Source of the DNA: Botryllus schlosseri
Taxonomy: Eukaryota
Direction of reading: 5' to 3'
Length of the DNA stretch: 64,000 bases
Assembly (NCBI GenBank): GCA_051294905.1
Contig: CM119371.1
Coordinates: 37,884,001-37,948,000 of the forward strand
Shown here: piece by piece, positions 17,162-64,000 of the stretch
How positions within the stretch are numbered: the first letter of the stretch is position 1
Layout: each line of letters opens with the position of its first letter
The notes under the pieces: generated by a model
Told to the model about the DNA's origin: nothing
What the model saw: the letters and a program-made list of their open reading frames with translations, nothing else
Databases searched by the model: none
Made by a program: the position numbers and the translations under genes

Positions 17162-18462
17162 TTTTCGATGTGTCCTATTCTATACCGAACTTGACAAAAC
17201 AGATGGTATCGAGTAGATGAAAGTATGGATGCAGAAGAAAACTAAGGTCTGGGTATAATGATTCGAGTACTGAAATTATATACGCCCTTTGCCACCAAGA
17301 GGCAATTCCTTAACGAGAATTTAGTTTCGGTACAATTTCCCACCCTTGAAAGCCCGAAACCTCGATTGGTCATATCGAAGCAACCGAATCATGTAGGCGT
17401 ACTACAGAAGTCGTGATCAACCTATGACATGGTCACAAAATGATATGAAGTAGTACAATCACAAAATGCAAACTCATCAAGAATGTGATGTATAAAACTC
17501 ATGTTATATTCGTTGTGGTTCTGGTGGTATAGAAGGTGCATTACACCTATCCACACCATTCAGATTGTTGCAACGTCATATGAGTGATACCCGAATACTC
17601 GTCTCGACTCAAAGCCTAATACCCGATTCAGAATCCATCCACTCATTAAGGTACTCGATATTATCCAGCCCTAATAATATGCGATCAACTTCAACTGAGC
17701 CACACGTATAAGAGCCTCTCTGAGCTCATCTTATTATACCAATAGCGGTTACTTCAATAAAGCCTAATTTTTCACCAATTGCTATACGTTTGCAATGACA
17801 TTGCTGCGTTACTGTATTGCAGGCATTAGTGCATCCTGCAATATTGTAGTCGATAGCGATTAATATTATCACGATAACACCAAAATCAATACTCTCTCAA
17901 TACTCGACTCAATTCATTACAATAATACATATTTCAGATGTGAATACTCGAATCATTGCCCCTAGCCCTAATATCATAAAGGCAATACAGTTAAACAACG
18001 AAATTGACTATTATAATATTCTTATCGTGCTATTCTGTAGGCCCTACTCCTTATGTAGGCTACTTTGTGATGCTGTTTCCGAATATTAGCTGTGTAATAT
18101 AACTACTGGCACATCAACAACCACTGCGCTTATCCTTGAACCGCTAACTAACGTTCAACATGCAGTTACTACATTCCTAACATATATGTAGAGGCATGAG
18201 TCAACAACGAATTGAGCAGATTTACCAGTGTTACGTTTCCAGAAGGAATATTCCTCGCGGCTGAATTTCGTATTCCAAGTGTTGCCTCAGTCTCATTTGC
18301 TATAACAATCTGCACTCTGAATTGGAATCAACCTCGAGCCAACCGTTTATATCAGTGACCGCCAAACTGGGTGCTGCGGCACGCTAGTGTGAATATGAGT
18401 CGTACCCCTTTTTGCTACTCAAGTAGAAGTAGAAGTAACGTAAGTTCACGTTGGAGTATAAA

Positions 18463-18884
18463 TAGGGTTACCCTATTTTGGAATCGGGAAATGAGGACAC
18501 TTTTTACAAATCATAAAAGTTAGATCACCAGAATCGAAAACGGCTGATTTTAAAATCTTTACTGAAAATCTTTTTGTGTTGACTAAGAAAGGTGATCATT
18601 GATGTCATAATCCCGACTCGACTCCCGGATTATCCACTATTTAACAATACGACAGTGGTGTTGACTAATAAAAGTGAGGTCATTTTTACAGTCCGACTCC
18701 CGAACGACGCGCTCGAAAGTCCGCATTACATATTTCGCGTCATTTATGGCGTTTTTAGTTCAGCCCGTCCATTAGCCTAGCTGTCAAAGCTGGCAACAAG
18801 AACGAATTTCACAAAAAGAGGACATTTTCGATTTCCGGAAAAAGGAGGACGAATCGTCCTAAAGGAGGACATGTGACAACCCTA
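18463..18884. mobile_element. MITE
   Basis: Ends tagggttacc / gacaacccta with subterminal gaggac repeats. Confidence 0.5.
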
Positions 18885-19705
18885 AGTCATGGTAGGGATG
18901 TCCAACTACGAATAAAGCCAAGTATTCTAGGCCTAAATAGGCTAACTGTTGAGTAGAAGTGAAAGTTGTCCAAAAACACGACCACTGGAATAAGTATAGT
19001 ACAAGTATATGCAAAACCCAGTTGAACATTCCTAACGTAGAAATACTTCGTTACTGGCGACCACTGAACAATTTATATATGAATATTACTATATCAATTC
19101 ATTCATACCACAGAATCGACATCGACTGCGATTAGCCAGAAATATTTTTGGACTTGGAGACCCCGTGGTTCAGAACAGTTTACACACTCACGGATTCGCA
19201 TATTATGATTAATTTCGACCGCAATTGATGACAGACTTGGAAAACAGGAGAATTCCGGAGCTAGATGTAGGTAATTTAATTCTAATATAGTTTATGAAAT
19301 GTTTCTATGCTCCCGTTTTCATTCTAATCTATTTACTGATTATCCTTACTCCTAATCTTACAAGAGAACTGTATGGGGCGGAAAGAGCCAAGCTCGGCGT
19401 ACATATGAGTAGTGTATGTAGGCCGATTATAGCCACCAATGAGATTACGCCACGTGTCCAGCCACGCCCACTTTCAAATTTAAATATTACCGCGCATTTT
19501 TTCAATTTTTTTTTCGGTTACTTGCCGAGAATTGAACCGAGGACCTCGCGACTCGGAAATATTACCGCGTATTTTTTTTTCTTACCCGAATTACCGCGTA
19601 TATTTTTATTTAATTTTTTTTTTATTTTTTTTACTCGAATTTCAGTGGATTATAAGAACGAATCCTTGCAGAGATATGAACCGAGGACCTCAGGACTCAG
19701 ATATG

Positions 19706-19785
19706 AAAACGCGCCTTCTCCTGGAATCGAACCGAGACCCTCATGTCTTATAGACCAGAACTGTAACCATTACACTATCGCGCTC
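19706..19785 (-). ncRNA. tRNA-like RNA polymerase III unit (left-arm copy)
   Basis: Mirror of 34427-34506. Confidence 0.5.
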
Positions 19786-19901
19786 GTTGAGAACATCCGT
19801 CTGTATTGAAGGTTTTAAAAAAGGTTGTCTAATAAGACGCAAACATTGAAAACGCATTTATTATTGTCGCCACAATCACCATTTATTTTCCGGGATATCC
19901 A

Positions 19902-20177
19902 CATGATAATATTCCCTATAATGTTTGTCATCGGAGGCGGTAAATGGCTCCGATTTAATTTCCGGCCTCAAGAAAACCGCGAGGCCACCGATTTCATTGT
20001 TCACGACTGGACGAATTTCCGCAATCCTCTCGGGCGATAACATGATAATGGTCCCTATAATGTTGCTCATCGGAGGCTGTAAATGGCTCCGATTTAAATT
20101 GTGTCGTCAAGAAAACCGCGAGACCACCGACTTCTTTACCCACGACTGGACGAATTTCCGCAATCCTCTCGGGCGAT
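19902..20177. repeat. Two-copy 139-bp tandem repeat in the left arm (mirror 34035-34310)
   Basis: catgataat...cctctcgggcgat begins at 19902 and again at 20041. Confidence 0.9.
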
Positions 20178-22840
20178 CTGCGTGATTCGTAATTCTCCAA
20201 ATAGGCTTCCAGTAGCTCATCATCATCGGATACAGGTTCGGTTTTGATTTTTACCGTGGAAAAAATTAAATCAGAGATGGCTACCGTACGCTTCCTAGCC
20301 CGCGCTCTCAATTGCAAGGCGAGGAGACGAGTGTACCATTAACATTATAGACGTACAACGAGCGATCAATGATAAGTGGCTCTGTATATCATGAGCAATA
20401 ATAAACGACGAGTGTGCCATCAACAATATAGACGCACAAACGAGCATATTTAACTAGCATTGATGCTATATCGATATGGCGCAGTATGTATAGCTGCATG
20501 CTAACCAATTCACATTTAACAATGCGACCCGCGTACAATTATGTAGCCCGATTTTCGTTGAATATTGACAACCCCAACAAATCGAATGAGCTCTTTTCCG
20601 TAGACATCTATAACACAGCTGTCAGTTCAATGGACACGAACTTGAGATTCCGTAGGGTTAAATTCCAAATCAAATAAGACCAGAGTGACTTATCTCTCTT
20701 TCAGGATTTGGACTGATGCGTCCGGCCTATGTCGCAACACTACAATATGTGGCAACACAAACCTATGTATACGTACAGTTGTTATTTGTAGTGTCATCGT
20801 CGCCCGCTGATGCGATAAACTCCCAACAGCTGACACATTCGGCTTCAATCTGATACCAGCATAATTTTTGTAGGTCGAGAATAAGGGTCTCAGGTAATTT
20901 AATTGCAACTAAAATGCCTGCGGCGGCTAATTCTGAGCTTGTTTTGGCTCGGGGGTCGGATGCAACATATGAATCCATTGGCATGGCGCACTATAGCCAA
21001 TTTAGGATGATGAGCCAAAACGCGTAGGCGAGAGAATGGAGATAATAACTAGCCTATATATTTAGAACAAATCAAGTATTGATTTCATGATAACGTATTC
21101 GTTATAACGTCATAAACATTTAGCGAGTTGTATAAGCTGCTTATCCTCAATAACCAATTTGTGGAAATTAGTGAAGAAGTGGATTGTATAGATTCTTAGA
21201 ACAGCACGAGAGTCTGGTTATAGATTTGCTGATGGTACCTGCTGACAGCATCATAACCACGCGACCTTTACTTACCCGTCAGCTAATGTCTTACTATGTA
21301 AAACATGCTTTCTGCACGTTCTTCCGTGAAGACGAACGTAATTTACTGATGTCCTAAATATTAAATTAATTCGGTTACTCTATGTGGCAGCTCATAATTT
21401 GAAATCAGCAAAGACTTCATTACATTACAAGTCTTACATTTTACGTTACTTCTTGATCGTTTCTTTACTGCAAAAAGCGTTTATATTCAACTCGTCGCAT
21501 TTTAGATTGCTTCGAGTCGTGGCGGTAGTTATGAATAAGTTAATATTGTGCCTACTGTCCAGTGCACCTATAGATGCAGAATGTACTTAACACGCGCATG
21601 GATCGCTTATTCCAAATAAATCGCTTAAAGTAACAAACGTGCTGGAGTTGTCAATCTAAAATCATATTCATGATACGAAATAAGTCATTGCCATTTTGAA
21701 TTTATGATATTTTTATAAACGACCTTTAAAAATGCGCGGGCCCCGAAGTCAGGTTATTGCACCAGCAATAAAAAAGTAACATTGTAAGTTTAATCAGGTC
21801 GATAAAATATTATATATTTTTTGTTACATTTCTTCCATATCTGCAAATATATCTTGATGCTATCGTGAGCCACTAAAATGTTGTCCGCATGCGATCCGAT
21901 AACCGTAGTTTGCTCATCCCTGGTTTTAATCATAATCTTTCAAGTAAGTTCTGTTGGTAGGCAAGCCCTACCAGGGTATATTTTGATAAATGCGGGAGTA
22001 AATCGTTATCGAGCCCCTTTCGTTAGCAACTTCTTCAGTAACACAAAATGGGTGACCAATCGCGGCCTCTCGAAATAAATGAACAGCATGCAATATGAAC
22101 AGGACATGAAGCTACGATGTCCGATAATTCCTTTCAATTAAAGTAGAAGTATAGCTATTTCCGACCGAGTAAAACGTTACTCGACATCGTGCTGTTGATA
22201 GTAGTGAGAAATGACATTCGTTTACTTTCGATAATATCCAACATACGGGCTCATGTCGGGGGCAATTTTTAGAACTCTAATATCGCATAGCCCAACTTTG
22301 CAATATTTGTCGATTTATTTAGTCATGTTTTCCTTGCAATAGCCATTCAGCATCGCGAAAATTCATAGTAGAATTTAGAATAAACTGCTACCGTTCATCA
22401 AGGTCGTTGAAAAGTACTTTTCAACGTTTAACTATCATGACATAGTAAACTTCTACTCAAGTACGAGAAGTAGCGATTGTAAGATGATTAGAAAATAAGT
22501 ATTACGGACGCAGTTTTGCCTAAAACCTAAATCACAACACGTTATCTGATCCCTTCCGAATGGCGAGATTAAATATCCCTGAAAAATGAATATTATTCAT
22601 AATATTCACATTGCTATACAAGAAATTTGCCCTGACATTGGCCATAGTGACCATTTAGAATTGGATAGTCAAGGAGTCGAAATTTCTTCGATGCGCATAG
22701 TGCACTAATTCGAGTGCTGAAATCCAATCGACTATATTTGTTATAATGATTCGAGTCGGGTAGTAAAATTTAATTAGCCAGCACTGAAATTACAGCAATA
22801 TAGTTTTACGACCGATGCGAAATTTGGTAGCCATTTCCAG

Positions 22841-23290
22841 GAATAGTAATCAATCCGAAACATTATGATAAATAGATAAGGTTGAAGAAATATAAAAATA
22901 TCATCAATGGTGTATGTATTATGAAACTGGAAATATTGTATTTGCGGTAGCCCGCGATTAGTTTCCAATTCGTAATTTCAACCGCATCGGCAGTTTTTTC
23001 ATCAAAATAAATAAACAAATACTTTGATGCTAATTTCAAAATAGCGTAAATCTCTTAATGAATTTCCCTTGAATAGTAATTAATCCGAAACATTATCATG
23101 CAAGGTCTAAGAAACATAAAAATATCATTAATGTGGTATGTATTGTGAAACAGGCAATATTTTCTTTGCGGTGATCAGAGAATATGTTCTAATTCGTAAT
23201 TTCAACCCCATCACCAGTGTCTCATAATAATGAATTAGCAAATCCTTCGATCCTAATTTTCAAAGTAGCTTAGCTTAGATCTCTGAATGA
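22841..23290. repeat. Diverged ~230-bp tandem duplication directly upstream of the Bcl-2-like gene (mirror 30922-31371)
   Basis: gaatagtaat(c/t)aatccgaaacattat at 22841 and 23071, with shared aattcgtaatttcaacc downstream. Confidence 0.75.
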
Positions 23291-23317
23291 CCTCTGACTC
23301 CCTGTTATCTTCAAACC

Positions 23318-24200
23318 ATGGAATTATTAGGAGTATCACCATCGGTCACTGAAGAAAAGGATGAAATTACATCCGGGGCATATTCCTTGGCCAGGAATTT
23401 TATCATGTACGAACTAGACTGGCCAAGCGTTAAAGCAAATACGAATGCGGAGACAACCTTACGGCGAGTTGGTGATGAAATGTTCGAGCGACATCGAACT
23501 GTCGTAAATGCAATCTCTAAACGTCTCCGATACAGTATTGTCGAAGTCGATGAAAAATATGAAAAATATTCTGCGGATGAGCGGATGTTTCTGATAATAG
23601 CTGATGAAATTTTTAAAGATACTCAAGAAAATTGGGGTCGTATTGTATCTCTGTTTGTGCTGGGTAGCATTCTTGCTCGCAAAAACGAGGAAGAGCATCA
23701 CGGTGATAATATAGAAGATATCATACAGTCAGTCGGGAATTACATCGGTAGAAGAAGACGAAAGTGGATAGGGGAAAATGGAGGATGGGTAAGCGATTTT
23801 ACATGCCCTGATAAGGACTTGGGAATTATCGTTTAGCTTGAGGTACTGTGTATCTGCTCTCGAGAGCCCATACCATCTATCGATAATGAAACTTAGCTTG
23901 CACTTCACAATTCGGTTTTCAATTCAAATTTTGTCATAAGGCACAGAAATTTACAGACCAAGCGCCCCGAGCTTTGAATTACCTAGCAAGTACGGTGACT
24001 TTCCTCTGCAAGATTAGGAACGCTTACATTTTTTTTGTTTGTTTCAGGACAGTTTTGTAGGATTTTTTGATAACGCAGCTCTCGATGATAGTAAAGTTTG
24101 GAAGAGGCTCATGTTTGTCGGAATTGGACTGACGTCTATTGCAATGGCAATAACAAGATCATGGATACTCCTTTGCCATACATCATGTAATAATTTTTAA
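23318..24200 (+). CDS. Bcl-2 family protein (multi-BH, likely pro-survival), exons 23318-23788 and 24048-24200, 207 aa
   Basis: BH3 TLRRVGDEM, BH1 NWGRIVSLFVLG, BH2 WIGENGGW|DSFV. GT-AG phase-0 intron 23789-24047 right after GGW, then a hydrophobic C-terminal tail LMFVGIGLTSIAMAI. Confidence 0.92.
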
Positions 24201-24721
24201 ATAATATATTTCTTCGCCGTTTCATTACATCAATTTTCCCTGTAGGACGGATGCAGTTTCTTCTGAGATTACATGAAAGATTGATCCATAAAACCGTCTT
24301 TATCTGGAACATTTCTATTCTTCAAATTTATCCAGCTACGTAAGGGAATTGTTAGGTTACCTAGAAAACGCCGCAGGTCATATTTGACCCAATTCCGATC
24401 ATAGTAGCGACAGGGAGTTATGACAGCTCAAAATTATCCATCTTTCGATGCCAAATATCGTTGGTTCTCCACGACCTAATATCGTGTTCTATAAATATTG
24501 TGTATATGGAGCAGATATAAATGTTGCTATTTTGTTGTTATTTACGAAGAATACTTTGCTCAGTAATTAATTTCACGGGGATTCTAAACCTCAATACATA
24601 CAAGAGAGCCAAGTTATATCAACCTGGGTTAACCTGTAGTGTTATGTAATTACCTACAATTTTATCAAGACGTAGCGAACACGATAAGTAATATGAAGTG
24701 AAGGAATAAGGGGGCCAAATT

Positions 24722-25981
24722 TCAATGTATAGATGCATATTTATGCGGGAATATCGTCCTACTGGACGAATGCAATTGTTTCCTTAAAGTTTTCCTGTCT
24801 ACGCCATTTAAGCGCGGTAAGATCAGTTTGAGTTGGCGACATTCAGGATGATATTTCACGAAGCTCTGAATGGTAGTCACATATTACCCGTGGATTCTTG
24901 TTCTATCGCTGTCACTGAGGTCGAATACCTTTAGCTGTTCATTGAATAATTGATTATTAGGCGGTTTAGATCAATTTCATAAACGAAATTTGAACTACAT
25001 TGCTTTATTGAGAACCATGAGAGAGCAGGAAATAACTTACTGTAGTGCATCGCTTCCCCATCTCTTCGGTAAGATTCCTGATTTGCAATGAAGCATCTTG
25101 CAATTACTCAGGTTGAATTCTTCAACGCGGGTTTTATGCAGGATATCAGTTGCTGTTTTGTAGCAGGAGGAAATGTCAGGATTTCTACTCAAATCCAGCG
25201 TATGCAGCTTAAACACAGTGTGATGTTCAAATATTTTACGACGCTACAAACCACTCAGTTGCTGTAACAATGATATTTATAGACGACAGAGCAATAATAT
25301 CAATTTCTGCGCCTCATCGCAAAACTGGTGTAATACAGAAATTGATGAACGTCGATAGGATTTGAAGAAACTGCCAAAACTACCATTAATATGAATGAGC
25401 GATAGAAAACCTTCCGCTCATAAGCAATATGACACTTTTTATCAGCAGATGTGATCACGAATGCCTTATTGATGGTAAATTCGCTCGCTAAATGAAATGC
25501 TATGCCTGACCTTGATAGGAATTCATATTAGTAGTACACTATGCTTGATTATTTAACTTGCAAGAAAACAAAACAGATCTAGCTAAAATGGATCACCTCA
25601 TGATTTCCGAGACCGTTATTCAACGAAGTTAATGACTGTTCATCCAATTCGCAAGCTGAAAGTCGAACTGCCTTCGTGTTATGCCTTTTCGCGAAGCGTT
25701 CGATTTCTTGCAATCCTATCGGTTCCAAATCCGTATTGTAACTTAGATCGAGTTTATCAACCTACAAAATACAGCAAATTATTCTGAACACGACACACAA
25801 AATTGTGGAAACGAGTGGCTACCTCGATTTCACCGAAACATTCAAAAGCACGAATTTCATAGGGTGTAAGGTCGCATCCTTTCATCACAAGGCTAACCGC
25901 TTTGTCTTTAGAAAATAAGGGCGGCAGTGCAGCCATACACTCTTCATTCAGACAATTATAACTGATGTCGAGATATTGGAG
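24722..25981 (-). pseudogene. Multi-exon leucine-rich-repeat (RI/NLR-like) gene remnant, left-arm copy
   Basis: Mirror of 28231-29490. Confidence 0.7.
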
Positions 25982-27088
25982 CTAAACGAATATGGGAAAC
26001 TGACAATTTACGACCATAATTAATCGGCGATGAAGACAAAGATTACAAACTTATAACAGAGAAATGTTGATTAGCCAGTCACGTCATAATAGATTAGCGA
26101 AATGTTCTGAGATTAAAATAGCACTTCCGTGATACCTCTCAAATGGACTCTTTGCAACCAGTCATAAAGAATGTGACTATTGACCACTACTCAACATAAG
26201 GAATTTCAACTTGATCATGATCCATAAGTATTGATTGAGGGTGCATCCTCTTATCACCTGTAGCATATGTGAATTATCGTGAATTCATGATCAGAAAATA
26301 AAATTATTATTCATTCTAATCAACATCCAATGTGATTTTTGTGTTGGACTATTTCAATATTTCGATAAGTCGGATAAAATGGTGATACGTGACATATATA
26401 CTCAAGCAAAAAAACTGCTCCATTACCAACACCACCGCGTATATGCCAATAACATAAGACTAAATCATGCTAGTTTGCAGAGTTTAGTCAACCATTGTAC
26501 AGTTTATGCGCTATGAGAATATCGAGTTAATCCAATTACATCATCATAAAGTTTATCCAAGAGTCAAAACTATATAATTTTCCAGTATTGTATGGACTAA
26601 ATTATTAGAAATAAACATCCAAAATGTTAAAGCTTTGGTTTTTACTTTATAAGAATAATTTTATATACTTTATTATAATCATGGTAGGGTATTTGTAATA
26701 ACGAAGGTGTTCTTTAACAACAAGCTATCTTTAATTTTATCAATAACACAAGCTAATTGATACATTTTGAAATTGACTGTAAGATATTAAGCTAATCGTC
26801 AGAGTCGACGGTGATAAAACTATTTTACTTGAGTAATATTTATCGCTACATAAATATCGTTACGCCTTCGGTGCGATGTAAATAGTTGTCTCGTGCGGCA
26901 TCCGTTGCGTGTCGTCACCCTTCGTACACCGTCGAGGAATAGGCTAGCCGGCTCCGTTGACTTGTGACTATTTGTCGTAGACTTAAGTTGTGATATTGTA
27001 AGTTTTGAGGTTCTAAGATGGGTCCGTTCTGGTAAAAAGGAGTCCGCGAATACAATAAAGAGACAATCCTGAGGATGCCGCCCGCCCC

Positions 27089-27123
27089 GCTCTGGGTTCG
27101 GGGCCAATAATAGGGATTAAATA
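27089..27123. other. 35-bp asymmetric spacer at the palindrome centre
   Basis: gctctgggttcggggccaataatagggattaaata between ...gccgcccgcccc and ggggcgggcggc... Confidence 0.95.
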
Positions 27124-28230
27124 GGGGCGGGCGGCATCCTCAGGATTGTCTCTTTATTGTATTCGCGGACTCCTTTTTACCAGAACGGACCCATCTTAGA
27201 ACCTCAAAACTTACAATATCACAACTTAAGTCTACGACAAATAGTCACAAGTCAACGGAGCCGGCTAGCCTATTCCTCGACGGTGTACGAAGGGTGACGA
27301 CACGCAACGGATGCCGCACGAGACAACTATTTACATCGCACCGAAGGCGTAACGATATTTATGTAGCGATAAATATTACTCAAGTAAAATAGTTTTATCA
27401 CCGTCGACTCTGACGATTAGCTTAATATCTTACAGTCAATTTCAAAATGTATCAATTAGCTTGTGTTATTGATAAAATTAAAGATAGCTTGTTGTTAAAG
27501 AACACCTTCGTTATTACAAATACCCTACCATGATTATAATAAAGTATATAAAATTATTCTTATAAAGTAAAAACCAAAGCTTTAACATTTTGGATGTTTA
27601 TTTCTAATAATTTAGTCCATACAATACTGGAAAATTATATAGTTTTGACTCTTGGATAAACTTTATGATGATGTAATTGGATTAACTCGATATTCTCATA
27701 GCGCATAAACTGTACAATGGTTGACTAAACTCTGCAAACTAGCATGATTTAGTCTTATGTTATTGGCATATACGCGGTGGTGTTGGTAATGGAGCAGTTT
27801 TTTTGCTTGAGTATATATGTCACGTATCACCATTTTATCCGACTTATCGAAATATTGAAATAGTCCAACACAAAAATCACATTGGATGTTGATTAGAATG
27901 AATAATAATTTTATTTTCTGATCATGAATTCACGATAATTCACATATGCTACAGGTGATAAGAGGATGCACCCTCAATCAATACTTATGGATCATGATCA
28001 AGTTGAAATTCCTTATGTTGAGTAGTGGTCAATAGTCACATTCTTTATGACTGGTTGCAAAGAGTCCATTTGAGAGGTATCACGGAAGTGCTATTTTAAT
28101 CTCAGAACATTTCGCTAATCTATTATGACGTGACTGGCTAATCAACATTTCTCTGTTATAAGTTTGTAATCTTTGTCTTCATCGCCGATTAATTATGGTC
28201 GTAAATTGTCAGTTTCCCATATTCGTTTAG

Positions 28231-29490
28231 CTCCAATATCTCGACATCAGTTATAATTGTCTGAATGAAGAGTGTATGGCTGCACTGCCGCCCTTATTTT
28301 CTAAAGACAAAGCGGTTAGCCTTGTGATGAAAGGATGCGACCTTACACCCTATGAAATTCGTGCTTTTGAATGTTTCGGTGAAATCGAGGTAGCCACTCG
28401 TTTCCACAATTTTGTGTGTCGTGTTCAGAATAATTTGCTGTATTTTGTAGGTTGATAAACTCGATCTAAGTTACAATACGGATTTGGAACCGATAGGATT
28501 GCAAGAAATCGAACGCTTCGCGAAAAGGCATAACACGAAGGCAGTTCGACTTTCAGCTTGCGAATTGGATGAACAGTCATTAACTTCGTTGAATAACGGT
28601 CTCGGAAATCATGAGGTGATCCATTTTAGCTAGATCTGTTTTGTTTTCTTGCAAGTTAAATAATCAAGCATAGTGTACTACTAATATGAATTCCTATCAA
28701 GGTCAGGCATAGCATTTCATTTAGCGAGCGAATTTACCATCAATAAGGCATTCGTGATCACGTCTGCTGATAAAAAGTGTCATATTGCTTATGAGCGGAA
28801 GGTTTTCTATCGCTCATTCATATTAATGGTAGTTTTGGCAGTTTCTTCAAATCCTATCGACGTTCATCAATTTCTGTATTACACCAGTTTTGCGATGAGG
28901 CGCAGAAATTGATATTATTGCTCTGTCGTCTATAAATATCATTGTTACAGCAACTGAGTGGTTTGTAGCGTCGTAAAATATTTGAACATCACACTGTGTT
29001 TAAGCTGCATACGCTGGATTTGAGTAGAAATCCTGACATTTCCTCCTGCTACAAAACAGCAACTGATATCCTGCATAAAACCCGCGTTGAAGAATTCAAC
29101 CTGAGTAATTGCAAGATGCTTCATTGCAAATCAGGAATCTTACCGAAGAGATGGGGAAGCGATGCACTACAGTAAGTTATTTCCTGCTCTCTCATGGTTC
29201 TCAATAAAGCAATGTAGTTCAAATTTCGTTTATGAAATTGATCTAAACCGCCTAATAATCAATTATTCAATGAACAGCTAAAGGTATTCGACCTCAGTGA
29301 CAGCGATAGAACAAGAATCCACGGGTAATATGTGACTACCATTCAGAGCTTCGTGAAATATCATCCTGAATGTTGCCAACTCAAACTGATCTTACCGCGC
29401 TTAAATGGCGTAGACAGGAAAACTTTAAGGAAACAATTGCATTCGTCCAGTAGGACGATATTCCCGCATAAATATGCATCTATACATTGA
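28231..29490 (+). pseudogene. Multi-exon leucine-rich-repeat (RI/NLR-like) gene remnant, right-arm copy
   Basis: AG/GT-bounded exons 28231-28389 (LQYLDISYNCL...LVMKGCDL), 28451-28615 (VDKLDLSYNTDL...VRLSACEL), 29005-29171 (LHTLDLSRNPDI...FNLSNCKM, 167 bp, apparent frameshift) and 29278-29490 (LKVFDLSD..., in-frame TAA at 29326). Confidence 0.7.
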
Positions 29491-30011
29491 AATTTGGCCC
29501 CCTTATTCCTTCACTTCATATTACTTATCGTGTTCGCTACGTCTTGATAAAATTGTAGGTAATTACATAACACTACAGGTTAACCCAGGTTGATATAACT
29601 TGGCTCTCTTGTATGTATTGAGGTTTAGAATCCCCGTGAAATTAATTACTGAGCAAAGTATTCTTCGTAAATAACAACAAAATAGCAACATTTATATCTG
29701 CTCCATATACACAATATTTATAGAACACGATATTAGGTCGTGGAGAACCAACGATATTTGGCATCGAAAGATGGATAATTTTGAGCTGTCATAACTCCCT
29801 GTCGCTACTATGATCGGAATTGGGTCAAATATGACCTGCGGCGTTTTCTAGGTAACCTAACAATTCCCTTACGTAGCTGGATAAATTTGAAGAATAGAAA
29901 TGTTCCAGATAAAGACGGTTTTATGGATCAATCTTTCATGTAATCTCAGAAGAAACTGCATCCGTCCTACAGGGAAAATTGATGTAATGAAACGGCGAAG
30001 AAATATATTAT

Positions 30012-30894
30012 TTAAAAATTATTACATGATGTATGGCAAAGGAGTATCCATGATCTTGTTATTGCCATTGCAATAGACGTCAGTCCAATTCCGACAAACA
30101 TGAGCCTCTTCCAAACTTTACTATCATCGAGAGCTGCGTTATCAAAAAATCCTACAAAACTGTCCTGAAACAAACAAAAAAAATGTAAGCGTTCCTAATC
30201 TTGCAGAGGAAAGTCACCGTACTTGCTAGGTAATTCAAAGCTCGGGGCGCTTGGTCTGTAAATTTCTGTGCCTTATGACAAAATTTGAATTGAAAACCGA
30301 ATTGTGAAGTGCAAGCTAAGTTTCATTATCGATAGATGGTATGGGCTCTCGAGAGCAGATACACAGTACCTCAAGCTAAACGATAATTCCCAAGTCCTTA
30401 TCAGGGCATGTAAAATCGCTTACCCATCCTCCATTTTCCCCTATCCACTTTCGTCTTCTTCTACCGATGTAATTCCCGACTGACTGTATGATATCTTCTA
30501 TATTATCACCGTGATGCTCTTCCTCGTTTTTGCGAGCAAGAATGCTACCCAGCACAAACAGAGATACAATACGACCCCAATTTTCTTGAGTATCTTTAAA
30601 AATTTCATCAGCTATTATCAGAAACATCCGCTCATCCGCAGAATATTTTTCATATTTTTCATCGACTTCGACAATACTGTATCGGAGACGTTTAGAGATT
30701 GCATTTACGACAGTTCGATGTCGCTCGAACATTTCATCACCAACTCGCCGTAAGGTTGTCTCCGCATTCGTATTTGCTTTAACGCTTGGCCAGTCTAGTT
30801 CGTACATGATAAAATTCCTGGCCAAGGAATATGCCCCGGATGTAATTTCATCCTTTTCTTCAGTGACCGATGGTGATACTCCTAATAATTCCAT
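30012..30894 (-). CDS. Bcl-2 family protein, second copy (exons 30894-30424 and 30164-30012)
   Basis: Mirror of 23318-24200. The exon 1 translation is identical in the ORF track. Confidence 0.92.
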
Positions 30895-33800
30895 GGTTTG
30901 AAGATAACAGGGAGTCAGAGGTCATTCAGAGATCTAAGCTAAGCTACTTTGAAAATTAGGATCGAAGGATTTGCTAATTCATTATTATGAGACACTGGTG
31001 ATGGGGTTGAAATTACGAATTAGAACATATTCTCTGATCACCGCAAAGAAAATATTGCCTGTTTCACAATACATACCACATTAATGATATTTTTATGTTT
31101 CTTAGACCTTGCATGATAATGTTTCGGATTAATTACTATTCAAGGGAAATTCATTAAGAGATTTACGCTATTTTGAAATTAGCATCAAAGTATTTGTTTA
31201 TTTATTTTGATGAAAAAACTGCCGATGCGGTTGAAATTACGAATTGGAAACTAATCGCGGGCTACCGCAAATACAATATTTCCAGTTTCATAATACATAC
31301 ACCATTGATGATATTTTTATATTTCTTCAACCTTATCTATTTATCATAATGTTTCGGATTGATTACTATTCCTGGAAATGGCTACCAAATTTCGCATCGG
31401 TCGTAAAACTATATTGCTGTAATTTCAGTGCTGGCTAATTAAATTTTACTACCCGACTCGAATCATTATAACAAATATAGTCGATTGGATTTCAGCACTC
31501 GAATTAGTGCACTATGCGCATCGAAGAAATTTCGACTCCTTGACTATCCAATTCTAAATGGTCACTATGGCCAATGTCAGGGCAAATTTCTTGTATAGCA
31601 ATGTGAATATTATGAATAATATTCATTTTTCAGGGATATTTAATCTCGCCATTCGGAAGGGATCAGATAACGTGTTGTGATTTAGGTTTTAGGCAAAACT
31701 GCGTCCGTAATACTTATTTTCTAATCATCTTACAATCGCTACTTCTCGTACTTGAGTAGAAGTTTACTATGTCATGATAGTTAAACGTTGAAAAGTACTT
31801 TTCAACGACCTTGATGAACGGTAGCAGTTTATTCTAAATTGTACTATGAATTTTCGCGATGCTGAATGGCTATTGCAAGGAAAACATGACTAAATAAATC
31901 GACAAATATTGCAAAGTTGGGCTATGCGATATTAGAGTTCTAAAAATTGCCCCCGACATGAGCCCGTATGTTGGATATTATCGAAAGTAAACGAATGTCA
32001 TTTCTCACTACTATCAACAGCACGATGTCGAGTAACGTTTTACTCGGTCGGAAATAGCTATACTTCTACTTTAATTGAAAGGAATTATCGGACATCGTAG
32101 CTTCATGTCCTGTTCATATTGCATGCTGTTCATTTATTTCGAGAGGCCGCGATTGGTCACCCATTTTGTGTTACTGAAGAAGTTGCTAACGAAAGGGGCT
32201 CGATAACGATTTACTCCCGCATTTATCAAAATATACCCTGGTAGGGCTTGCCTACCAACAGAACTTACTTGAAAGATTATGATTAAAACCAGGGATGAGC
32301 AAACTACGGTTATCGGATCGCATGCGGACAACATTTTAGTGGCTCACGATAGCATCAAGATATATTTGCAGATATGGATGAAATGTAACAAAAAATATAT
32401 AATATTTTATCGACCTGATTAAACTTACAATGTTACTTTTTTATTGCTGGTGCAATAACCTGACTTCGGGGCCCGCGCATTTTTAAAGGTCGTTTATAAA
32501 AATATCATAAATTCAAAATGGCAATGACTTATTTCGTATCATGAATATGATTTTAGATTGACAACTCCAGCACGTTTGTTACTTTAAGCGATTTATTTGG
32601 AATAAGCGATCCATGCGCGTGTTAAGTACATTCTGCATCTATAGGTGCACTGGACAGTAGGCACAATATTAACTTATTCATAACTACCGCCACGACTCGA
32701 AGCAATCTAAAATGCGACGAGTTGAATATAAACGCTTTTTGCAGTAAAGAAACGATCAAGAAGTAACGTAAAATGTAAGACTTGTAATGTAATGAAGTCT
32801 TTGCTGATTTCAAATTATGAGCTGCCACATAGAGTAACCGAATTAATTTAATATTTAGGACATCAGTAAATTACGTTCGTCTTCACGGAAGAACGTGCAG
32901 AAAGCATGTTTTACATAGTAAGACATTAGCTGACGGGTAAGTAAAGGTCGCGTGGTTATGATGCTGTCAGCAGGTACCATCAGCAAATCTATAACCAGAC
33001 TCTCGTGCTGTTCTAAGAATCTATACAATCCACTTCTTCACTAATTTCCACAAATTGGTTATTGAGGATAAGCAGCTTATACAACTCGCTAAATGTTTAT
33101 GACGTTATAACGAATACGTTATCATGAAATCAATACTTGATTTGTTCTAAATATATAGGCTAGTTATTATCTCCATTCTCTCGCCTACGCGTTTTGGCTC
33201 ATCATCCTAAATTGGCTATAGTGCGCCATGCCAATGGATTCATATGTTGCATCCGACCCCCGAGCCAAAACAAGCTCAGAATTAGCCGCCACAGGCATTT
33301 TAGTTGCAATTAAATTACCTGAGACCCTTATTCTCGACCTACAAAAATTATGCTGGTATCAGATTGAAGCCGAATGTGTCAGCTGTTGGGAGTTTATCGC
33401 ATCAGCGGGCGACGATGACACTACAAATAACAACTGTACGTATACATAGGTTTGTGTTGCCACATATTGTAGTGTTGCGACATAGGCCGGACGCATCAGT
33501 CCAAATCCTGAAAGAGAGATAAGTCACTCTGGTCTTATTTGATTTGGAATTTAACCCTACGGAATCTCAAGTTCGTGTCCATTGAACTGACAGCTGTGTT
33601 ATAGATGTCTACGGAAAAGAGCTCATTCGATTTGTTGGGGTTGTCAATATTCAACGAAAATCGGGCTACATAATTGTACGCGGGTCGCATTGTTAAATGT
33701 GAATTGGTTAGCATGCAGCTATACATACTGCGCCATATCGATATAGCATCAATGCTAGTTAAATATGCTCGTTTGTGCGTCTATATTGTTGATGGCACAC

Positions 33801-34426
33801 TCGTCGTTTATTATTGCTCATGATATACAGAGCCACTTATCATTGATCGCTCGTTGTACGTCTATAATGTTAATGGTACACTCGTCTCCTCGCCTTGCAA
33901 TTGAGAGCGCGGGCTAGGAAGCGTACGGTAGCCATCTCTGATTTAATTTTTTCCACGGTAAAAATCAAAACCGAACCTGTATCCGATGATGATGAGCTAC
34001 TGGAAGCCTATTTGGAGAATTACGAATCACGCAGATCGCCCGAGAGGATTGCGGAAATTCGTCCAGTCGTGGGTAAAGAAGTCGGTGGTCTCGCGGTTTT
34101 CTTGACGACACAATTTAAATCGGAGCCATTTACAGCCTCCGATGAGCAACATTATAGGGACCATTATCATGTTATCGCCCGAGAGGATTGCGGAAATTCG
34201 TCCAGTCGTGAACAATGAAATCGGTGGCCTCGCGGTTTTCTTGAGGCCGGAAATTAAATCGGAGCCATTTACCGCCTCCGATGACAAACATTATAGGGAA
34301 TATTATCATGTGGATATCCCGGAAAATAAATGGTGATTGTGGCGACAATAATAAATGCGTTTTCAATGTTTGCGTCTTATTAGACAACCTTTTTTAAAAC
34401 CTTCAATACAGACGGATGTTCTCAAC

Positions 34427-34506
34427 GAGCGCGATAGTGTAATGGTTACAGTTCTGGTCTATAAGACATGAGGGTCTCGGTTCGATTCCAGGAGAAGGCG
34501 CGTTTT
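34427..34506 (+). ncRNA. tRNA-like RNA polymerase III unit (right-arm copy), not a canonical tRNA
   Basis: A box TAGTGTAATGG, B box GGTTCGATTCC and TTTT at 34503-34506. D-arm-like hairpin tgtaa-tgg-ttaca, but poor anticodon and T stems. Confidence 0.5.
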
Positions 34507-35212
34507 CATATCTGAGTCCTGAGGTCCTCGGTTCATATCTCTGCAAGGATTCGTTCTTATAATCCACTGAAATTCGAGTAAAAAAAATAAAAAAAAAATT
34601 AAATAAAAATATACGCGGTAATTCGGGTAAGAAAAAAAAATACGCGGTAATATTTCCGAGTCGCGAGGTCCTCGGTTCAATTCTCGGCAAGTAACCGAAA
34701 AAAAAATTGAAAAAATGCGCGGTAATATTTAAATTTGAAAGTGGGCGTGGCTGGACACGTGGCGTAATCTCATTGGTGGCTATAATCGGCCTACATACAC
34801 TACTCATATGCTTGCCATTCGCACACTGATGAGAATGAACTTTGGTTTGATATTAACTGAACGTGATTTTAGTCGCATTTCTCCATATTGTTCGAAAATG
34901 AATACGATTTCCCATTTTCGCGCAAATCCAGTAATTCCAGCTCTAAATAATCAGGGGAAATGTGTAGCTATATTTCCAATGCTAATCTAATTAGGAAATG
35001 CTGAAACTTTAATAGCTGTCCAGTTCTGCTTAGTGAGGCGCTCTGTTCTCTTTCCATTCGCGTCGATCGCTTGATATTCGGAGGACATTTTCTCTGATTC
35101 GAAGCAAATTCATCGATGTTCTCGATATTGAAGGCGTTCAAATTTCTTCGCACTATCATCGCAGATAGTTTCTGACAGACTCAATCTTTTATGCGGATAT
35201 ATCCACTAATAA

Positions 35213-37954: not shown

Positions 37955-38546
37955 GGTCTGACTATAGATTACTAACCTACGGATAGATACGCAAGTCCCG
38001 TCGTTACGCTCCGGCAAGCAGTTACACTCGTTGCTGAGCAATCTAAAAGCAGCATAATTGGTGGAGTTATGGCTTGCGACCCGAGGGCTGAAATGTAATG
38101 AAACTGGTCTTAATCGAGAGCTGCTGCCGCACTGATTCCGAAAATACAAATTAAAATCTTGTCGGGGATATGGAACCACCTCAAAACATCCCTCAAAATC
38201 TGAAAATCGACATTGTTCCAACAATGGCACCACCGCAACACGATGAACATAACGATGGCCAATTTCGTCAAGCGATCGTTCAGAATAATGGCGACTTCCA
38301 GACTTTGAGGGATGTTTTGACGTGGTTCCATTCCCCTGACAAGATTTCAATTTGTATTCTCAGAATCAGTGCGACAGTAGCTCCCGATTAAGACCAGTTT
38401 CAATAAATTTCACCCGTCGGGTCGCAAGTTATAACACCACCAATTATGCTGCTTTTAGATTGCTCAGCAATAAGTTTAACTGCTTGCCGGAGCGTTGCGA
38501 CGGGACTTGCGTATCTATCCGTAGGTTAGTAATCTATAGTCCGACC
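37955..38546. mobile_element. Fold-back MITE (~260-bp inverted arms)
   Basis: gactatagattactaacctacggatagatacgcaagtcccgtcg and its reverse complement at 38495-38541, with arms paired inwards. Confidence 0.85.
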
Positions 38547-41006: not shown

Positions 41007-44000
41007 TCACAATCTTCTGCGAAACTTCATTTCCGAGTAGCGCAGTGGTCTGTCAGAGTTACCATGCCACCACCAAATTCCTTTAACGCCCGTCTTGTTG
41101 AAGTTTCCATTCAGATTGCTGTCTGCGCATTGGTTTTACCACCAGCCTCCTTCGTGCAAAGAAGCGCAATTCGATAGCAAATGACCATCGTTATCGGCGT
41201 CTTTCATTGAGAATTGTTGATTGTTGTGAGCTGAGAATGAGTCAAGAGTTGCATTCTCGGAGTACATGTATCCGGATACGTGAAGTTTGTAGTTGTCGGA
41301 GCTGGGTCCGATTCGGAAATTGCTGAACAATACGAATTGGCGCGAATGTTCAATAAAGCCTATGCAGGAGAATGCATGGAAATGTGGTTTATGGGATGTT
41401 ATTAATTTTCTGAACGCAACGATGAGATCCCACGTTAAGTTCGTTGCGAAAAACTTTGGTGATAAATTGGCTATTGCTTTTTCGGTGAGATAATGACATC
41501 GTGACGAAACCAAGTCGACACATTTTAGAGCAGACCAGGGTTGTAACCAAGTCACAAGGCTCCGAGTCACAAGTCAATCTCACTTTTATTGTTTTGACTC
41601 GAGTCAAGTCGAGTCATTTCAATTCACCACCGAGTCAAGTCCGAGTCCAAGTCAGCGATTAGAGGGTCGAGTCCGAGTCATGGAATTATGACTCGAGTCC
41701 AAGTCCAAGTCATTGTATAGACTGCTCAGTTTCCAGTTAAAGTCTTGGTAAACCCACTTTTTATAACTCTGTTTGGTGATATCGGATGTTTCGCATTTAT
41801 AATATACCAATTTTCCTCACTTTTAGCAGTTTCTGGTCGCATATTCAAGTACCAGTACCAACAGACGAAATCCCAATGGTGTGTTGGCTTCGGAATTACA
41901 ATGAAATGTCGGTCTTGGCCGTCTGAGTCTCGAGTCAATGACTTGGTTCGAGTCATGCGCAATGACTCGAGTCCAAGTCGAGTCAATACACGAATTGACT
42001 CGAGTCGAGTCGAGTCATTTCCGTATTTTGAAAAAATGACTCGAGTCAAGTCGAGTCATCGGAAAATCGTGACTCGAGTCAGACTCGAGTCGAGTCATGA
42101 CTCGAGTCATTACAACCCTGGAGCAGACCCGGGCAAAGTGCGGCCCGCGGGCCAAATGCGACCCGCGAAACTATTCTGTGCGGCCCGCGAAAGGTTGCTT
42201 GAAATTCAAAACATGAAAACTTGTTTTTTAAATGAATAAAACCATAGGCTGTATCTACTGAACAGGAAATTCGTATAATTTGAAGCCTGTTCATAAATAA
42301 GCCACGATTACGCTGCCTGCGTACCTCACATGCGTAATCCAGATTCAAGATAAAGGCAATGTGGCAAAGTACGAGTAGCAATTAAAGTCACAAGAAATCA
42401 CATTTTCCATATAGTTTAGTTTGAAATTCTTTGTTGCCATTGTCACATTACGCATTATACGGTATGTGTTTCAATTTGTTACGTGTGATACGTTTCCAAA
42501 GCCCTAATTCGTAAATCAAGTGAATCAGTGCTCGCGATTACTATATGACTCATCATATTTATCACCCATAAAGGATCACCGGACATGCCAAAAAAGAATG
42601 CTGCCAACTAAAATTCAAAAAAGGTTTAGACCGGGGGTTGGCAACCCCCCTCATTTTATTTTTTGCCGAGCATGTCGCCGAGATTGAGCATTTTAATTAA
42701 AGTCGGTCTTATGACAAAAACACGAAAAACTCGGTCAAGGGAGGGCGAAGTTCAAAAAAACTGCAAGCTTCGCTCAACATCAAGGCTATAAGCTGCACAC
42801 TGCTCGGAAGGCAGCGACCAAGAAAATGAGCTTTGTACTATTGCACATACATTTCGAACTGCGGGACAGGAAAGCTTAAGAAGAGGGCGCGAAGCCGAAG
42901 TTTATTGAAAAAATTTTTCGCGCTCCGCGCGATTTACACATGCCTTGTAGTTGTGGCTCTGTGTATTGTCCGACATTGATATTTCAGAATTCCTTCATTA
43001 ACTGCTGTAACCTTCCATGCAATCAAACTATCCGTTGGGATTGCTAGCATTCTGGTTGCACTTTTTAATATTTTGTGATATCATGATGAGGACGGCGCGA
43101 ATTTTTTCACTAACATAAAGGCCTAGAAAGTTTGAGAACCACTGTTTTAGAGACTTAATAGAAGAACGTTGATAGGAATTTAAAGAAAGTTAAAATGTAT
43201 CACGTTTAACATTGTTTCGAATCATTTCGGTAAATAGATATTTTCCTAATTAACTGTCACTTTCCCATTACCTAACATCAACATATTTACTTCGCAGCAT
43301 TTATTAACAATGTAATTTAGAAATGAAATGAAATACTCTGGAGAATATAGCTAAGACTTTTCACTTGGCCCGCCAACGTATATTCAAATTCTCATTTGGC
43401 CCGCGGAGAAAAATAATTGCCCATCCCTATTTTAGAGATTACCTAGTTACATCGCATAATGGCATGGAGATTGTTACGTCGATGCTATAAATGCATTTGA
43501 AAACATAAAAGGGCCATTCTAAACTTGAATGATGTGATAAACCGACACAGTTTGAAATCTCATGAAATTTTGTACGTAGGCCTACACAGAGTACTTAGTT
43601 GTACTAAGTTCGAGCAGAATGGACTTTATTTTATGACAATTGCACTTTAGGATCAAAAGTTACTTCGTTTTGAAAATTGACTATCTTCGCTCATTTCAAA
43701 TCTGAGCAGTTCAAGTTTTACCAATTTGACGTAATACTTTCATATTGGTTTTCCCTCCGCCTGTCGTTAATAAACTGTTGGCACTTTATTAATTTTCGTT
43801 CGTCATTTATTCCGCCAATTATCACTACTATCACCAAACTTTTGTATTAATTGATGCATCGAACTACCACTTGCCTGTATTTAGCCACCCAGTGGGTATT
43901 TGTGTCGTTCGTGATCATGTTGATTTCCAATTCCATATTTCCTTCCTTTGTCATTTCGTGCAATTTATCGAGTCCTTGACACAAGCGTTGGGAAATTATC

Positions 44001-51271: not shown

Positions 51272-51748
51272 GTTTAAGCAGTAGTAAGTTATAGCGTACA
51301 CGAGTCTCTTCTTCGGAGTTAATAATACGATATGTAGGCCTACTATGTTATATACCGGCGAGCCGATAAGTCACGTTATGTGGCATTGTACCAATAACAG
51401 ATACGAGAGAGGGAGCAAGGGCTCCACAGCGGCCATGACAAAAGCGATGGTCTTTTGATGTCGCCATCAGCTTCCCAATTAGTTCAGGGGTGCATGTACG
51501 CACCCGCCAAAAAAACGTTTCGGGTATGCGCTAGAAAAATGGTTAAGATCCATTGGACTAGAGCCAATATCTACCGAGATCAGTGCATATGGATCATATA
51601 TTTGACTAACTGCGGCGGCGAAATAGCCTGGGAATGGGCCGTGCTACAAGTAGGTATAAATACGGAATATTAATGAAGAATATTGGCCTAGTGTAAAATG
51701 ACTAGTGTAATCGAAACATTATTGTGATTATTATCAAACACCAACAAC

Positions 51749-52971: not shown

Positions 52972-64000
<11,029 letters not shown>

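Follow-up and report, generated by a model that had tools for sequence, protein, structure and literature searches.

A palindromic and probably Polinton-derived element, with a Bcl-2-like gene in each arm, in the genome of Botryllus schlosseri

INTRODUCTION

Polintons/Mavericks are thought to be viruses, and their virions and replication have hardly been observed. According to one account (PMC10748475), these elements are 13-25 kb long, with terminal inverted repeats (TIRs) of 100-1,500 bp and target-site duplications (TSDs) of 5-8 bp. Another (PMC3014272) regards as typical a lizard copy of 17,487 bp whose TIR measures 584 bp and whose TSD measures 6 bp. Cargo genes have also been recorded in this class: two reports mention Bcl2 and IAP (inhibitor-of-apoptosis) homologues in adintoviruses (PMC8502044), and intron-containing cargo between the TIR and the integrase of nematode Mavericks (Widen et al., bioRxiv 10.1101/2022.07.12.499685). 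We show herein that a stretch of 64,000 nucleotides (nt) from Botryllus schlosseri (assembly GCA_051294905.1, 495.5 Mb in 219 contigs; contig CM119371.1, C1:37884001-37948000, forward strand; referred to as the window) contains an element of 15,397 bp that is palindromic throughout and very probably derived, in non-autonomous form, from the virus-like Polinton/Maverick transposons.

Long inverted repeats are known from several other systems. Foldback elements, such as Drosophila FB, have arms of short tandem repeats and no conserved genes, and non-autonomous DNA transposons of the MITE (miniature inverted-repeat transposable element) type are usually much shorter than their masters. The palindromes of the primate Y chromosome have kilobase-scale arms that are more than 99.9% alike through arm-to-arm gene conversion. 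Adenovirus uses its CATCAT ends for jumping back at initiation, and Daniell is said to have reported in 1976 that its defective genomes include long inverted duplications. Incomplete adenovirus particles hold subgenomic left-end DNA, and the packaging signal is at the left end (PMC5033970).

The window element resembles Polintons and adintoviruses in its AG(T)-repeat ends, its 6-bp duplication, its size within 15-20 kb and the presence of a homologous element in the same genome. Unlike them, it has no core genes, and its "TIRs" of 7,681 nt are five times the upper bound given in PMC10748475 and meet at a 35-nt spacer. Like the snap-back genomes of adenovirus, it appears to stem from a protein-primed linear genome with one end present twice in inverted orientation and to depend on a helper; those genomes arise de novo during infection, and no lineages of them are known that integrate, are inherited and bear genes, whereas the window family is chromosomal, diversified (synonymous divergence, dS, up to 0.44) and carries genes under selection. 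The 3-nt terminal repeat AGTAGT, seen as AGTAGTAGT at one end of the homologous Polinton, is reminiscent of CATCAT. With foldback and MITE-like elements it shares long inverted arms that leave hardly any centre and, probably, the need for a transposase provided in trans. On the contrary, members of the window family are near the length of their master and protein-coding, and lack the degenerate tandem-repeat arms of the FB type.

RESULTS

Architecture of the element

The element and its boundaries are as follows.

19402..19407, no strand: left TSD copy, CATATG (the copy on C14, described below, has CACATA at the equivalent position relative to AGTAGT)
19408..34804, no strand: entire palindromic element, 15,397 bp, with AGTAGT...ACTACT ends (the C14 copy is homologous up to exactly these bases)
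19408..27088, + strand: left arm, 7,681 nt (differs from the right arm by 5 mismatches and 0 indels)
27077..27135, no strand: palindrome centre, a 12-bp G+C-rich clamp GCCGCCCGCCCC / GGGGCGGGCGGC flanking a 35-nt asymmetric spacer at 27089-27123 (same centre in C14a, C3a, C12a and C8a)
27124..34804, - strand: right arm, 7,681 nt, mirror of the left (repeat search and direct comparison)
34805..34810, no strand: right TSD copy, CATATG (read directly)

In the repeat search, the inverted arms came out as 19402-27088 and 27124-34810, separated by 35 nt; each is 7,687 nt long because it includes CATATG, a hexamer that is its own reverse complement. Complementarity of the arms ends exactly at this hexamer, and the palindrome does not extend outward. 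By direct count the arms differ at five positions (20921, 21833, 22371, 24838 and 25450) without an indel, which corresponds to 99.93% identity. A preliminary description of this DNA had reported arms of 7,681 nt with no indel, the 35-nt spacer, the AGTAGT...ACTACT termini and CATATG on both sides, all of which stand, except that the arms are near-identical rather than perfectly identical. It had also named a Bcl-2-like exon as the only long open reading frame (ORF). This is correct within the arms, where a 181-amino-acid (aa) Bcl-2 frame, once per arm, is the only one of at least 130 aa; two further frames of that size, of 172 aa on the left and 149 aa on the right, cross the ends of the element.

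Each arm contains only two tandem arrays, a 139-bp unit present twice and an 18-bp unit present 2.4 times. A scan of the element for tRNA genes found none, and an Rfam scan gave only sub-threshold microRNA-hairpin matches at the palindrome centre, which are trivial.

A second copy at an unrelated locus

The first 499 bp of the arm have four near-identical places in the genome, namely both ends of the window element and both ends of an element on C14. The latter, a complete palindrome of 15,402 bp, matches the window element from end to end at 99.5-99.7% identity. Homology between the two ends at the same terminal bases, the flanks are unrelated, and the 6-bp duplication is CACATA on C14 as against CATATG in the window. 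Each of the five arm mismatches of the window element is a singleton when compared with both C14 arms, and they are split three and two between the arms.

Genome-wide, 28 termini of the window type were found. Among 12 family members examined, the ends could be read in six, and all six begin with AGTAGT and have their own 6-bp direct duplication (CATATG, CACATA, CTCGTG, TACTCT, TACATG and CACGGC); in the other six, the boundaries of the self-alignment fell short of a terminus. The preliminary description had looked to copies at unrelated loci with different 6-bp TSDs as support for mobility, and the C14 copy and these relatives provide it. That the same palindrome was inserted twice independently, with a different duplication each time, makes a fold-back artefact or a local duplication untenable in practice. 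The window element is thus real and mobile, and at least two transpositions have involved the palindrome as a whole.

Of 24 sequencing runs listed, no RNA run was given as containing the sequence, and three under other species labels (X6, X12 and X15) contained 15-21% of the sequence words. Short reads from four runs (X1, X5, X23 and X8) were mapped to positions 18400-27300 at 97% likeness, with a minimum of 31 nt for spanning a junction. In run X1, contig depth was 28-62 inside the element and 8-9 in the unique flank; depth of this sort is soft evidence and not a copy number. Summed X1 depths per bin reach thousands, which is expected of a multi-copy family and likewise gives no copy number.

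Ends shared with a resident Polinton

Many contigs carry the terminal sequence of the window element at 75-95% identity, arranged as +/- pairs with 15-20 kb between the two members. One such pair bounds an element of 19,655 bp (C11:7780598-7800252) with AGT-repeat ends, the duplication AAGATC and a TIR of about 430 bp (432 alignment columns, 97%). Pfam recognizes in it an rve integrase (4.8e-12), a Chromo domain (6.7e-8) and a Pox_A32 packaging ATPase (2.3e-6). Its 1,244-aa ORF has DNA_pol_B_2 clusters as its nearest Atlas neighbours (score 0.97, 19 of 30 matches) and contains a DTDS motif. For its 426-aa ORF, an AlphaFold model built from 19 sequences (predicted local distance difference test, pLDDT, 73.8; predicted template modelling score, pTM, 0.75) retrieved double-jelly-roll capsid proteins as the top Foldseek matches, with E values from 7.6e-16 to 6e-14: Sputnik (7.6e-16, TM score 0.64), PBCV-1, an iridovirus and mavirus. 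Both of these ORFs were empty in a PDB sequence search and in Pfam even at E 10. A weak adenain-like Peptidase_C5 match (E 0.04) is below the cut-off. The C11 element is a textbook Polinton/Maverick, and is referred to below as the helper. An ORF with a BIR (inhibitor-of-apoptosis) domain (Pfam 6.2e-19) lies about 1.4 kb inside its right end (C11:7798251-7798862; L028:8752-9363, +), so that the helper and the palindromes both carry cell-death regulators, of different families (BIR/IAP and Bcl-2).

Two features of the arm belong here.

19408..20263, + strand: stretch homologous to the helper end (blocks of 89%, 86%, 80% and 76%)
19901..20177, + strand: 139-bp subterminal tandem repeat, two units (mirror copy at 34035-34311)

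The shared stretch, AGTAGT...GGCCGATTATAG, begins at base 1 of the window element and of the helper alike. Identity to the helper's left end is 89% over positions 1-107, 86% over 183-403, 80% over 296-631 and 76% over 633-841, or about 860 bp in total. An autonomous element sharing the terminus, with pPolB, rve integrase, A32-type ATPase and double-jelly-roll capsid, had been anticipated in the preliminary description, and the helper is such an element. With its left end both arms have about 720 bp in common, more than the 430-bp TIR that this end shares with the helper's right end; a match of this extent fits one particular end being present twice. In keeping with a snap-back genome, that end is duplicated in inverted orientation around a short turn-around, the 12-bp G+C clamp and 35-nt loop.

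The rest of the helper has nothing in common with the window arm except one 20-residue match, and a tblastx comparison of the arm with the gene region of the helper (L028) yielded 0 matches. Among the 63 stop-to-stop frames of at least 45 aa in one arm, only Bcl-2 passes Pfam; none is a polymerase, integrase, ATPase, protease or capsid gene. With all of these genes missing from the arm, the element is not an autonomous Polinton/Maverick. Since it combines this lack of core genes with Polinton-homologous ends, it is best described as a non-autonomous Polinton/Maverick derivative, having a 6-bp TSD, 5'-AG TIRs homologous to those of an element with pPolB and integrase, and copies at multiple unrelated loci.

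The Bcl-2-like gene

Between the shared end and the palindrome centre, each arm carries a two-exon gene.

23318..23788, + strand: Bcl-2-like exon 1, 157 aa, with LRRVGDE, NWGR and GGW (Pfam Bcl-2 1.8e-22; mirror 30424-30894, - strand)
23789..24047, + strand: 259-nt phase-0 intron, GT...AG, directly after the GGW codons (read directly; the alignment to homologues resumes in exon 2)
24048..24200, + strand: Bcl-2-like exon 2, 50 aa, the rest of BH2, a hydrophobic tail and the stop (conserved in distant subfamilies; mirror 30012-30164, - strand)

Exon 1 matches the Bcl-2 family profile PF00452 at 1.8e-22 (cut-off 31.4 bits) and, weakly, the BALF1 profile (1.2e-4). Exon 2 encodes DSFVGFFDN...KVWKRLMFVGIGLTSIAMAI, followed by the stop. 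The predicted product of 207 aa belongs to the Bcl-2 family and has a Bcl-2 homology (BH) 3-like motif, BH1, BH2 and a tail anchor, where we take LRRVGDE to be the BH3-like motif, NWGR to be BH1 and GGW to be BH2. In the PDB, 176 sequences match at E <=1e-3, the best being Mcl-1, Bcl-2 and Bcl2L10 at E ~2e-9 (top 1.9e-9). A search of 1.84 billion representative proteins returned two at E <=1e-30 and 14 at E <=1e-10. The closest named relative is bcl-2-like protein 2 of the tunicate Styela clava, to which exon 1 is 50% identical over residues 50-202 (E 3e-50) and exon 2 47% identical over residues 205-240 (E 1e-10). The identity of 50% to an annotated tunicate gene, the BH motifs, the tail anchor and the retained intron make the gene look cellular and recently derived. 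Viral Bcl-2 homologues, such as BHRF1 and BALF1 of herpesviruses, likewise place a Bcl-2-fold gene on a virus-like genome; unlike those, the window gene has a clear BH3, BH1, BH2 and tail anchor, and an intron after GGW.

Between subfamilies, the ratio of non-synonymous to synonymous divergence (dN/dS) of this gene is 0.23-0.30 at dS 0.35-0.44 and 0.27-0.30 at dS ~0.15. Values of 0.23-0.30 indicate purifying selection along the lineages that yielded the copies, as for a gene of the element and not for inert freight. As judged from its sequence, the Bcl-2-like gene is apparently functional in each arm. The notion that the cargo is simply passive host DNA does not agree with this selection, nor with the finding that the same gene adjoins an integrase in a non-palindromic class of elements (see below). 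A cargo of this type is also not undescribed, as had been supposed, given the Bcl2 and IAP homologues that PMC8502044 reports in Polinton-class adintoviruses.

An RNA run (X23, about 6% of it read) gave seven partly fitting reads with loose tails like a GACTCGAGTC-rich repeat, and no usable signal of expression or splicing. A repeat of GACTCGAGTC words occurs in the window at 51600-51960; the loose tails, which belong to RNA reads reaching the end of Bcl-2 exon 1, resemble its sequence at 51774-51803.

An old and diversified family of palindromes

The genome-wide listings scored the best 150 of 410, 37 of 360 and 121 of 778 candidates; counts derived from them are lower bounds, and absences are weak. 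The search with Bcl-2 exon 1 gave the 410 candidates, of which the best 150 are all 74-100% identical to it, and 144 of these 150 have no stop codon. In 106 of the 150, the matches form 53 convergent pairs (+ followed by -), so that at least 53 such pairs exist genome-wide; 44 are unpaired among the matches listed. The spacings within pairs cluster near 3.2, 5.6, 7.1 and 8.9 kb.

By self-comparison, whole palindromes measure 15,397 bp in the window, 15,402 on C14, 16,551 on C8, 15,768 on C6 and ~15,471 on C5b; the member on C7 is a rearranged palindrome of 15,290 bp. In the C6 and C5b elements, the Bcl-2 protein is only 76-79% identical to that of the window, and the arms cannot be aligned with the window arms outside Bcl-2, except for two short blocks, while their lengths are almost equal. 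A length constraint of 15.3-16.6 kb is a tendency, not a rule. The window element had been taken for the outcome of a single snap-back event; it belongs instead to an old, diversified palindrome family (at least 53 Bcl-2 pairs) with concerted arms.

A more complex arrangement was seen at C9:13231980-13260484, where four Bcl-2 matches (+,-,+,-) and four matches to a leucine-rich repeat (LRR) exon lie between termini 28.5 kb apart, as two palindromic units side by side or nested.

Arms that evolve in concert

The arms of the window element and of the C8 element, which is ~92% identical to it, were aligned together (8,721 columns, 1,469 of them gapped). At 539 sites the two elements differ and yet their own arms agree, whereas arm-specific sites number six in the window and four in C8; 12 sites show other patterns. 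Arms drifting independently should have become roughly as different as the lineages, and this is not the case; the two arms co-evolve. Between the window and C14 there are 12 concerted differences, five singletons in window arms and 10 in C14 arms. The pattern suggests that a source lineage changed while its arms were being homogenised, and that a few mutations arose independently once the copies had been inserted.

The centre, with its 12-bp G+C clamp and 35-nt spacer, has the same sequence in the window, C14, C3, C12 and C8. A shared centre together with 539 concerted and only 10 arm-specific sites points to one palindrome that diversified while its arms were kept alike. The centres of C6a (L042/L043) and C5b (L046/L047) are unrelated in sequence and have the same design, with a CCCGCGCGC clamp and an asymmetric loop of ~40 nt, as would be expected of a turn-around with a function or, equally, of palindromes formed repeatedly where small hairpins occur. 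The C6a/C5b loop is rich in TAGGG/TTAGG-like words.

The arms may be kept homogeneous by correction in a hairpin, by repeated self-templated turn-back at the clamp, or by chromosomal gene conversion from arm to arm. The primate Y palindromes are similar in that long arms are kept alike while lineages diverge. They differ in being fixed at a single locus. Given the mobility of the window unit, its arms may be homogenised in a replicative hairpin and not in the chromosome.

LRR exons and a decayed reading frame

Three LRR-like frames are located between Bcl-2 and the centre, on the strand opposite to Bcl-2, and a degraded frame lies nearer the end of the arm.

25760..25981, - strand: LRR exon a, ribonuclease-inhibitor-type (Atlas LRR_6 clusters 0.95-0.96; mirror 28231-28452, + strand)
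25582..25761, - strand: LRR exon b (LxxLxLxxN pattern read directly; mirror 28451-28630, + strand)
25040..25243, - strand: LRR-like frame c (Pfam LRR_1 E 0.0033, below cut-off; mirror 28969-29172, + strand)
20504..20980, - strand: degraded copy of a family ORF of ~150 aa (82% identity; 2 TGA, 2 TAG and 2 TAA in the match; mirror 33232-33708, + strand)

Exon a, a 74-aa frame with a Pfam LRR_1 match below the cut-off (E 0.036), has 146 genomic matches at 57-100% identity, 136 of them without a stop and most of them in -/+ pairs within Bcl-2 pairs. Its dN/dS is 0.5-0.9; that of exon b, against the C8a group, is 0.13-0.16. Frame c has no ungapped counterpart beyond the pair formed by the window and C14. 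The C6, C5b and C1a subfamilies are without the LRR gene, and many others have it. A search for a longer protein containing the LRR exon found none, and none of the 63 arm frames of at least 45 aa contains a NACHT/NB-ARC, TIR, death-fold or other signalling domain, which places the frames outside the NLR (NACHT- and LRR-containing) and innate-receptor classes. From these frames the LRR is read as a real but unplaced gene. The label "immunity genes" in the preliminary description is not justified, as it comes down to LRR exons of the ribonuclease-inhibitor type that score 0.96 in the Atlas and fall below the Pfam cut-off.

The ORF of ~150 aa is open over 148-153 aa in five copies from other subfamilies (for example, L036:2206-2664, -, and L042:4889-5335, -), with 57% identity over 92 conserved residues between the most distant ones. 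In the window element and its C14 twin, the matched stretch contains six to seven stops. A fold prediction from five sequences was unusable (pLDDT 37). A genome search with this ORF gave 1,216 candidates, some of them in -/+ pairs 1.3-4 kb apart, suggesting much smaller palindromic elements.

Integrase, polymerase and Bcl-2 in other elements

The coordinates of three genome searches (Bcl-2, polymerase and integrase) were crossed at 67 integrase matches of at least 66% identity, the loci being studied by coordinates only. Among the matches listed, a polymerase lies within 5 kb of 36 of the 67, all of these being without Bcl-2. Another nine lack a polymerase and are preceded, ~2 kb upstream on the same strand, by an unpaired Bcl-2 (e.g. 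C8:25661431-25664858 and C1:8325479-8328909). The remaining 22 have neither, and none has both within 5 kb. The integrase search listed no match inside the window element. A search for a helper with the C6a-type terminus found eight sites, belonging to four non-autonomous elements, none near a listed polymerase. Since these counts refer to the matches listed, the mutual exclusion of polymerase and Bcl-2 is a lead only. It suggests a series from a complete virus, through a polymerase-less element with Bcl-2 and integrase, to a Bcl-2-only palindrome.

The nine unpaired Bcl-2 copies recall the cargo of nematode Mavericks. Those are largely complete, with pPolB and virion genes, whereas the cargo elements here are without pPolB and the window element is also without integrase. 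In five of the nine loci, and in one further unpaired copy, the Bcl-2 frame is open over 226-228 aa, and the gene may be intronless there.

DISCUSSION

In the literature searched, which did not include the founding Polinton paper or Repbase reports, so that a precedent may exist, we found no description of palindromic, whole-length, gene-bearing non-autonomous Polintons or of Bcl-2 satellites. The preliminary description had mentioned palindromic non-autonomous Polintons in zebrafish as a possible precedent. The element class, the Bcl2-type cargo and intron-bearing cargo are already known; what was not found there is the palindromic satellite family.

We infer mobilisation in trans, packaging, a hairpin mechanism and a pro-survival role. 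Helper Polintons would replicate the palindrome by protein priming at the AGT repeats, and a helper rve integrase would insert it, as the shared ends and the duplication length suggest. A helper capsid probably packages it; the clustering of lengths bears on this, and such packaging would explain why divergent full palindromes stay at 15.3-16.6 kb. A polymerase that reversed at a short hairpin with a G+C clamp, and so duplicated one genome end, may have given rise to the palindrome. Its arms could then stay alike if a displaced single strand folds into a 7.7-kb hairpin that undergoes mismatch correction, or if the turn-back recurs. Like viral Bcl-2 homologues, the Bcl-2-like protein, which most resembles Mcl-1, Bcl-2 and Bcl-w, would most likely keep the cell alive while the element and its helper replicate.

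A bolder and distinctly tentative reading, which we consider possible rather than probable, is that the palindromes are a self-sustaining satellite lineage of Polinton viruses. The self-complementary strand of 15-16 kb would form a 7.7-kb hairpin with the loop as its turn-around, the helper capsid would set the length, and Bcl-2 and LRR proteins would hold off the death of a co-infected cell. In each cycle the helper polymerase would copy the new strand back on itself at the clamped loop, and such a turn-around would explain 7.7-kb arms that remain identical over long divergence. If this were true, the family would be a metazoan counterpart of virophages and satellite viruses, and indirect evidence that the Polintons of this animal form virions.

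Three features are hard to obtain with a plain cut-and-paste transposon: a length kept near that of the genome, one genome end in duplicate, and 7.7-kb arms evolving in concert. Protein-primed strand-displacement replication with capsid packaging would produce all three, and the family may be a natural readout of it. It also represents a mobile element that spreads an apparently functional apoptosis regulator (at least 144 open copies scored), which bears on the expansion of cell-death gene families and on the ways in which virus-like elements deal with host defences. The pattern of polymerase or Bcl-2 beside the integrase hints that a virus became a satellite in successive steps, a proposal testable by sequence alone. 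For specialists, the points of note are the concerted 7.7-kb arms, the near-constant palindrome length across subfamilies, the selected Bcl-2 gene and the exclusivity of polymerase and Bcl-2.

Several observations weigh against a non-autonomous Polinton palindrome with these properties, or against parts of that interpretation, and one of them is that the genome-wide counts are lower bounds and the absences weak. The closest polymerase-bearing element found shares just 85-89% of terminal sequence and has two copies only, so that cross-mobilisation is unproven. A length constraint is at odds with other family members of 17.5-20.1 kb, with partly unique centres or insertions, with two elements of 10.3 and 13.6 kb that have matched C6-type ends, and with one pair of window-type ends 55 kb apart. 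Pro- or anti-death activity cannot be read from the sequence, and one search neighbour of the Bcl-2-like protein, 33% identical, is named BAX-like. Among the short reads, contigs from the four runs are fragmentary and none bridges the palindrome centre; the best left-junction contig (X1, 19154-19431) enters the element by only 24 nt, under the 31-nt minimum.

These short-read results would suit an assembly artefact, in which a chimeric fold-back long read created a false second arm, as would arms that are 99.93% identical and a mapping that spans neither the centre nor, at 31 nt, the junction. The recurrence of the 15.4-kb palindrome elsewhere in the genome, between other unique flanks and next to a different 6-bp duplication, speaks strongly against it, and so do the dozens of related palindromes at other loci, the unique window flanks with their matching duplications, the five arm differences that are singletons divided three and two between the arms and, softly, the higher X1 depth in the element than in its flank, depth not being copy number. 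We consider this explanation highly improbable and close to refuted already. Still less credence is due to a local inverted duplication of host DNA that is not a mobile element. Inverted duplications with short spacers do arise at breaks, and the arm does hold intron-containing, host-like genes; the boundaries are nonetheless precise and identical at two loci, with a 6-bp direct duplication at each, the ends are homologous to a Polinton TIR, and the 28 termini of this type are spread across the genome.

Two other readings accept a mobile element and differ as to its nature. Very long inverted arms with little centre are what define foldback elements, and the terminal identity of the best helper found does not exceed 89%, which might indicate a foldback-type transposon of another superfamily that uses an unrelated transposase and merely shares repeats with Polintons. 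This is very unlikely: the shared stretch of ~860 bp starts at base 1 of both elements, the duplication of 6 bp has the helper's length, and a second class of elements has the same Bcl-2 gene ~2 kb from a Polinton-type rve integrase. Somewhat less remote, and still improbable, is the suggestion that palindromes form anew, and often, from one-armed elements, so that arm identity reflects youth and Bcl-2 and LRR are passive passengers. The two clades with unrelated centres of the same design (window type and C6a/C5b type) would agree with repeated formation, and the weak constraint on LRR exon a (dN/dS 0.5-0.9) and the ~150-aa ORF, already dead in the window subfamily, with passive cargo. Against repeated formation, the clade of the window, C3a, C12a and C8a has a single centre and spacer, with 539 sites separating the elements and no more than 10 separating arms; against passive cargo, dN/dS of Bcl-2 is 0.23-0.30 at dS up to 0.44, and 144 of the 150 scored frames are open.

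Sequences around the insertion

Host-type exons occur on both sides of the element. A mitochondrial carrier (2e-33) is encoded at 7585-8655 (+), a fibrinogen C domain exon (2.6e-10) at 41136-41573 (-), and a villin headpiece exon (6.7e-14) and a weak gelsolin repeat at 52972-53379 (-) and 56894-57361 (-), respectively. The window also contains two small foldback repeats, at 37955-38546 and 57283-57791, with arms of 264 and 211 nt that are 87-89% complementary, and a 274-nt inverted pair (41617-41890 with 53434-53707) whose members are 11.5 kb apart.

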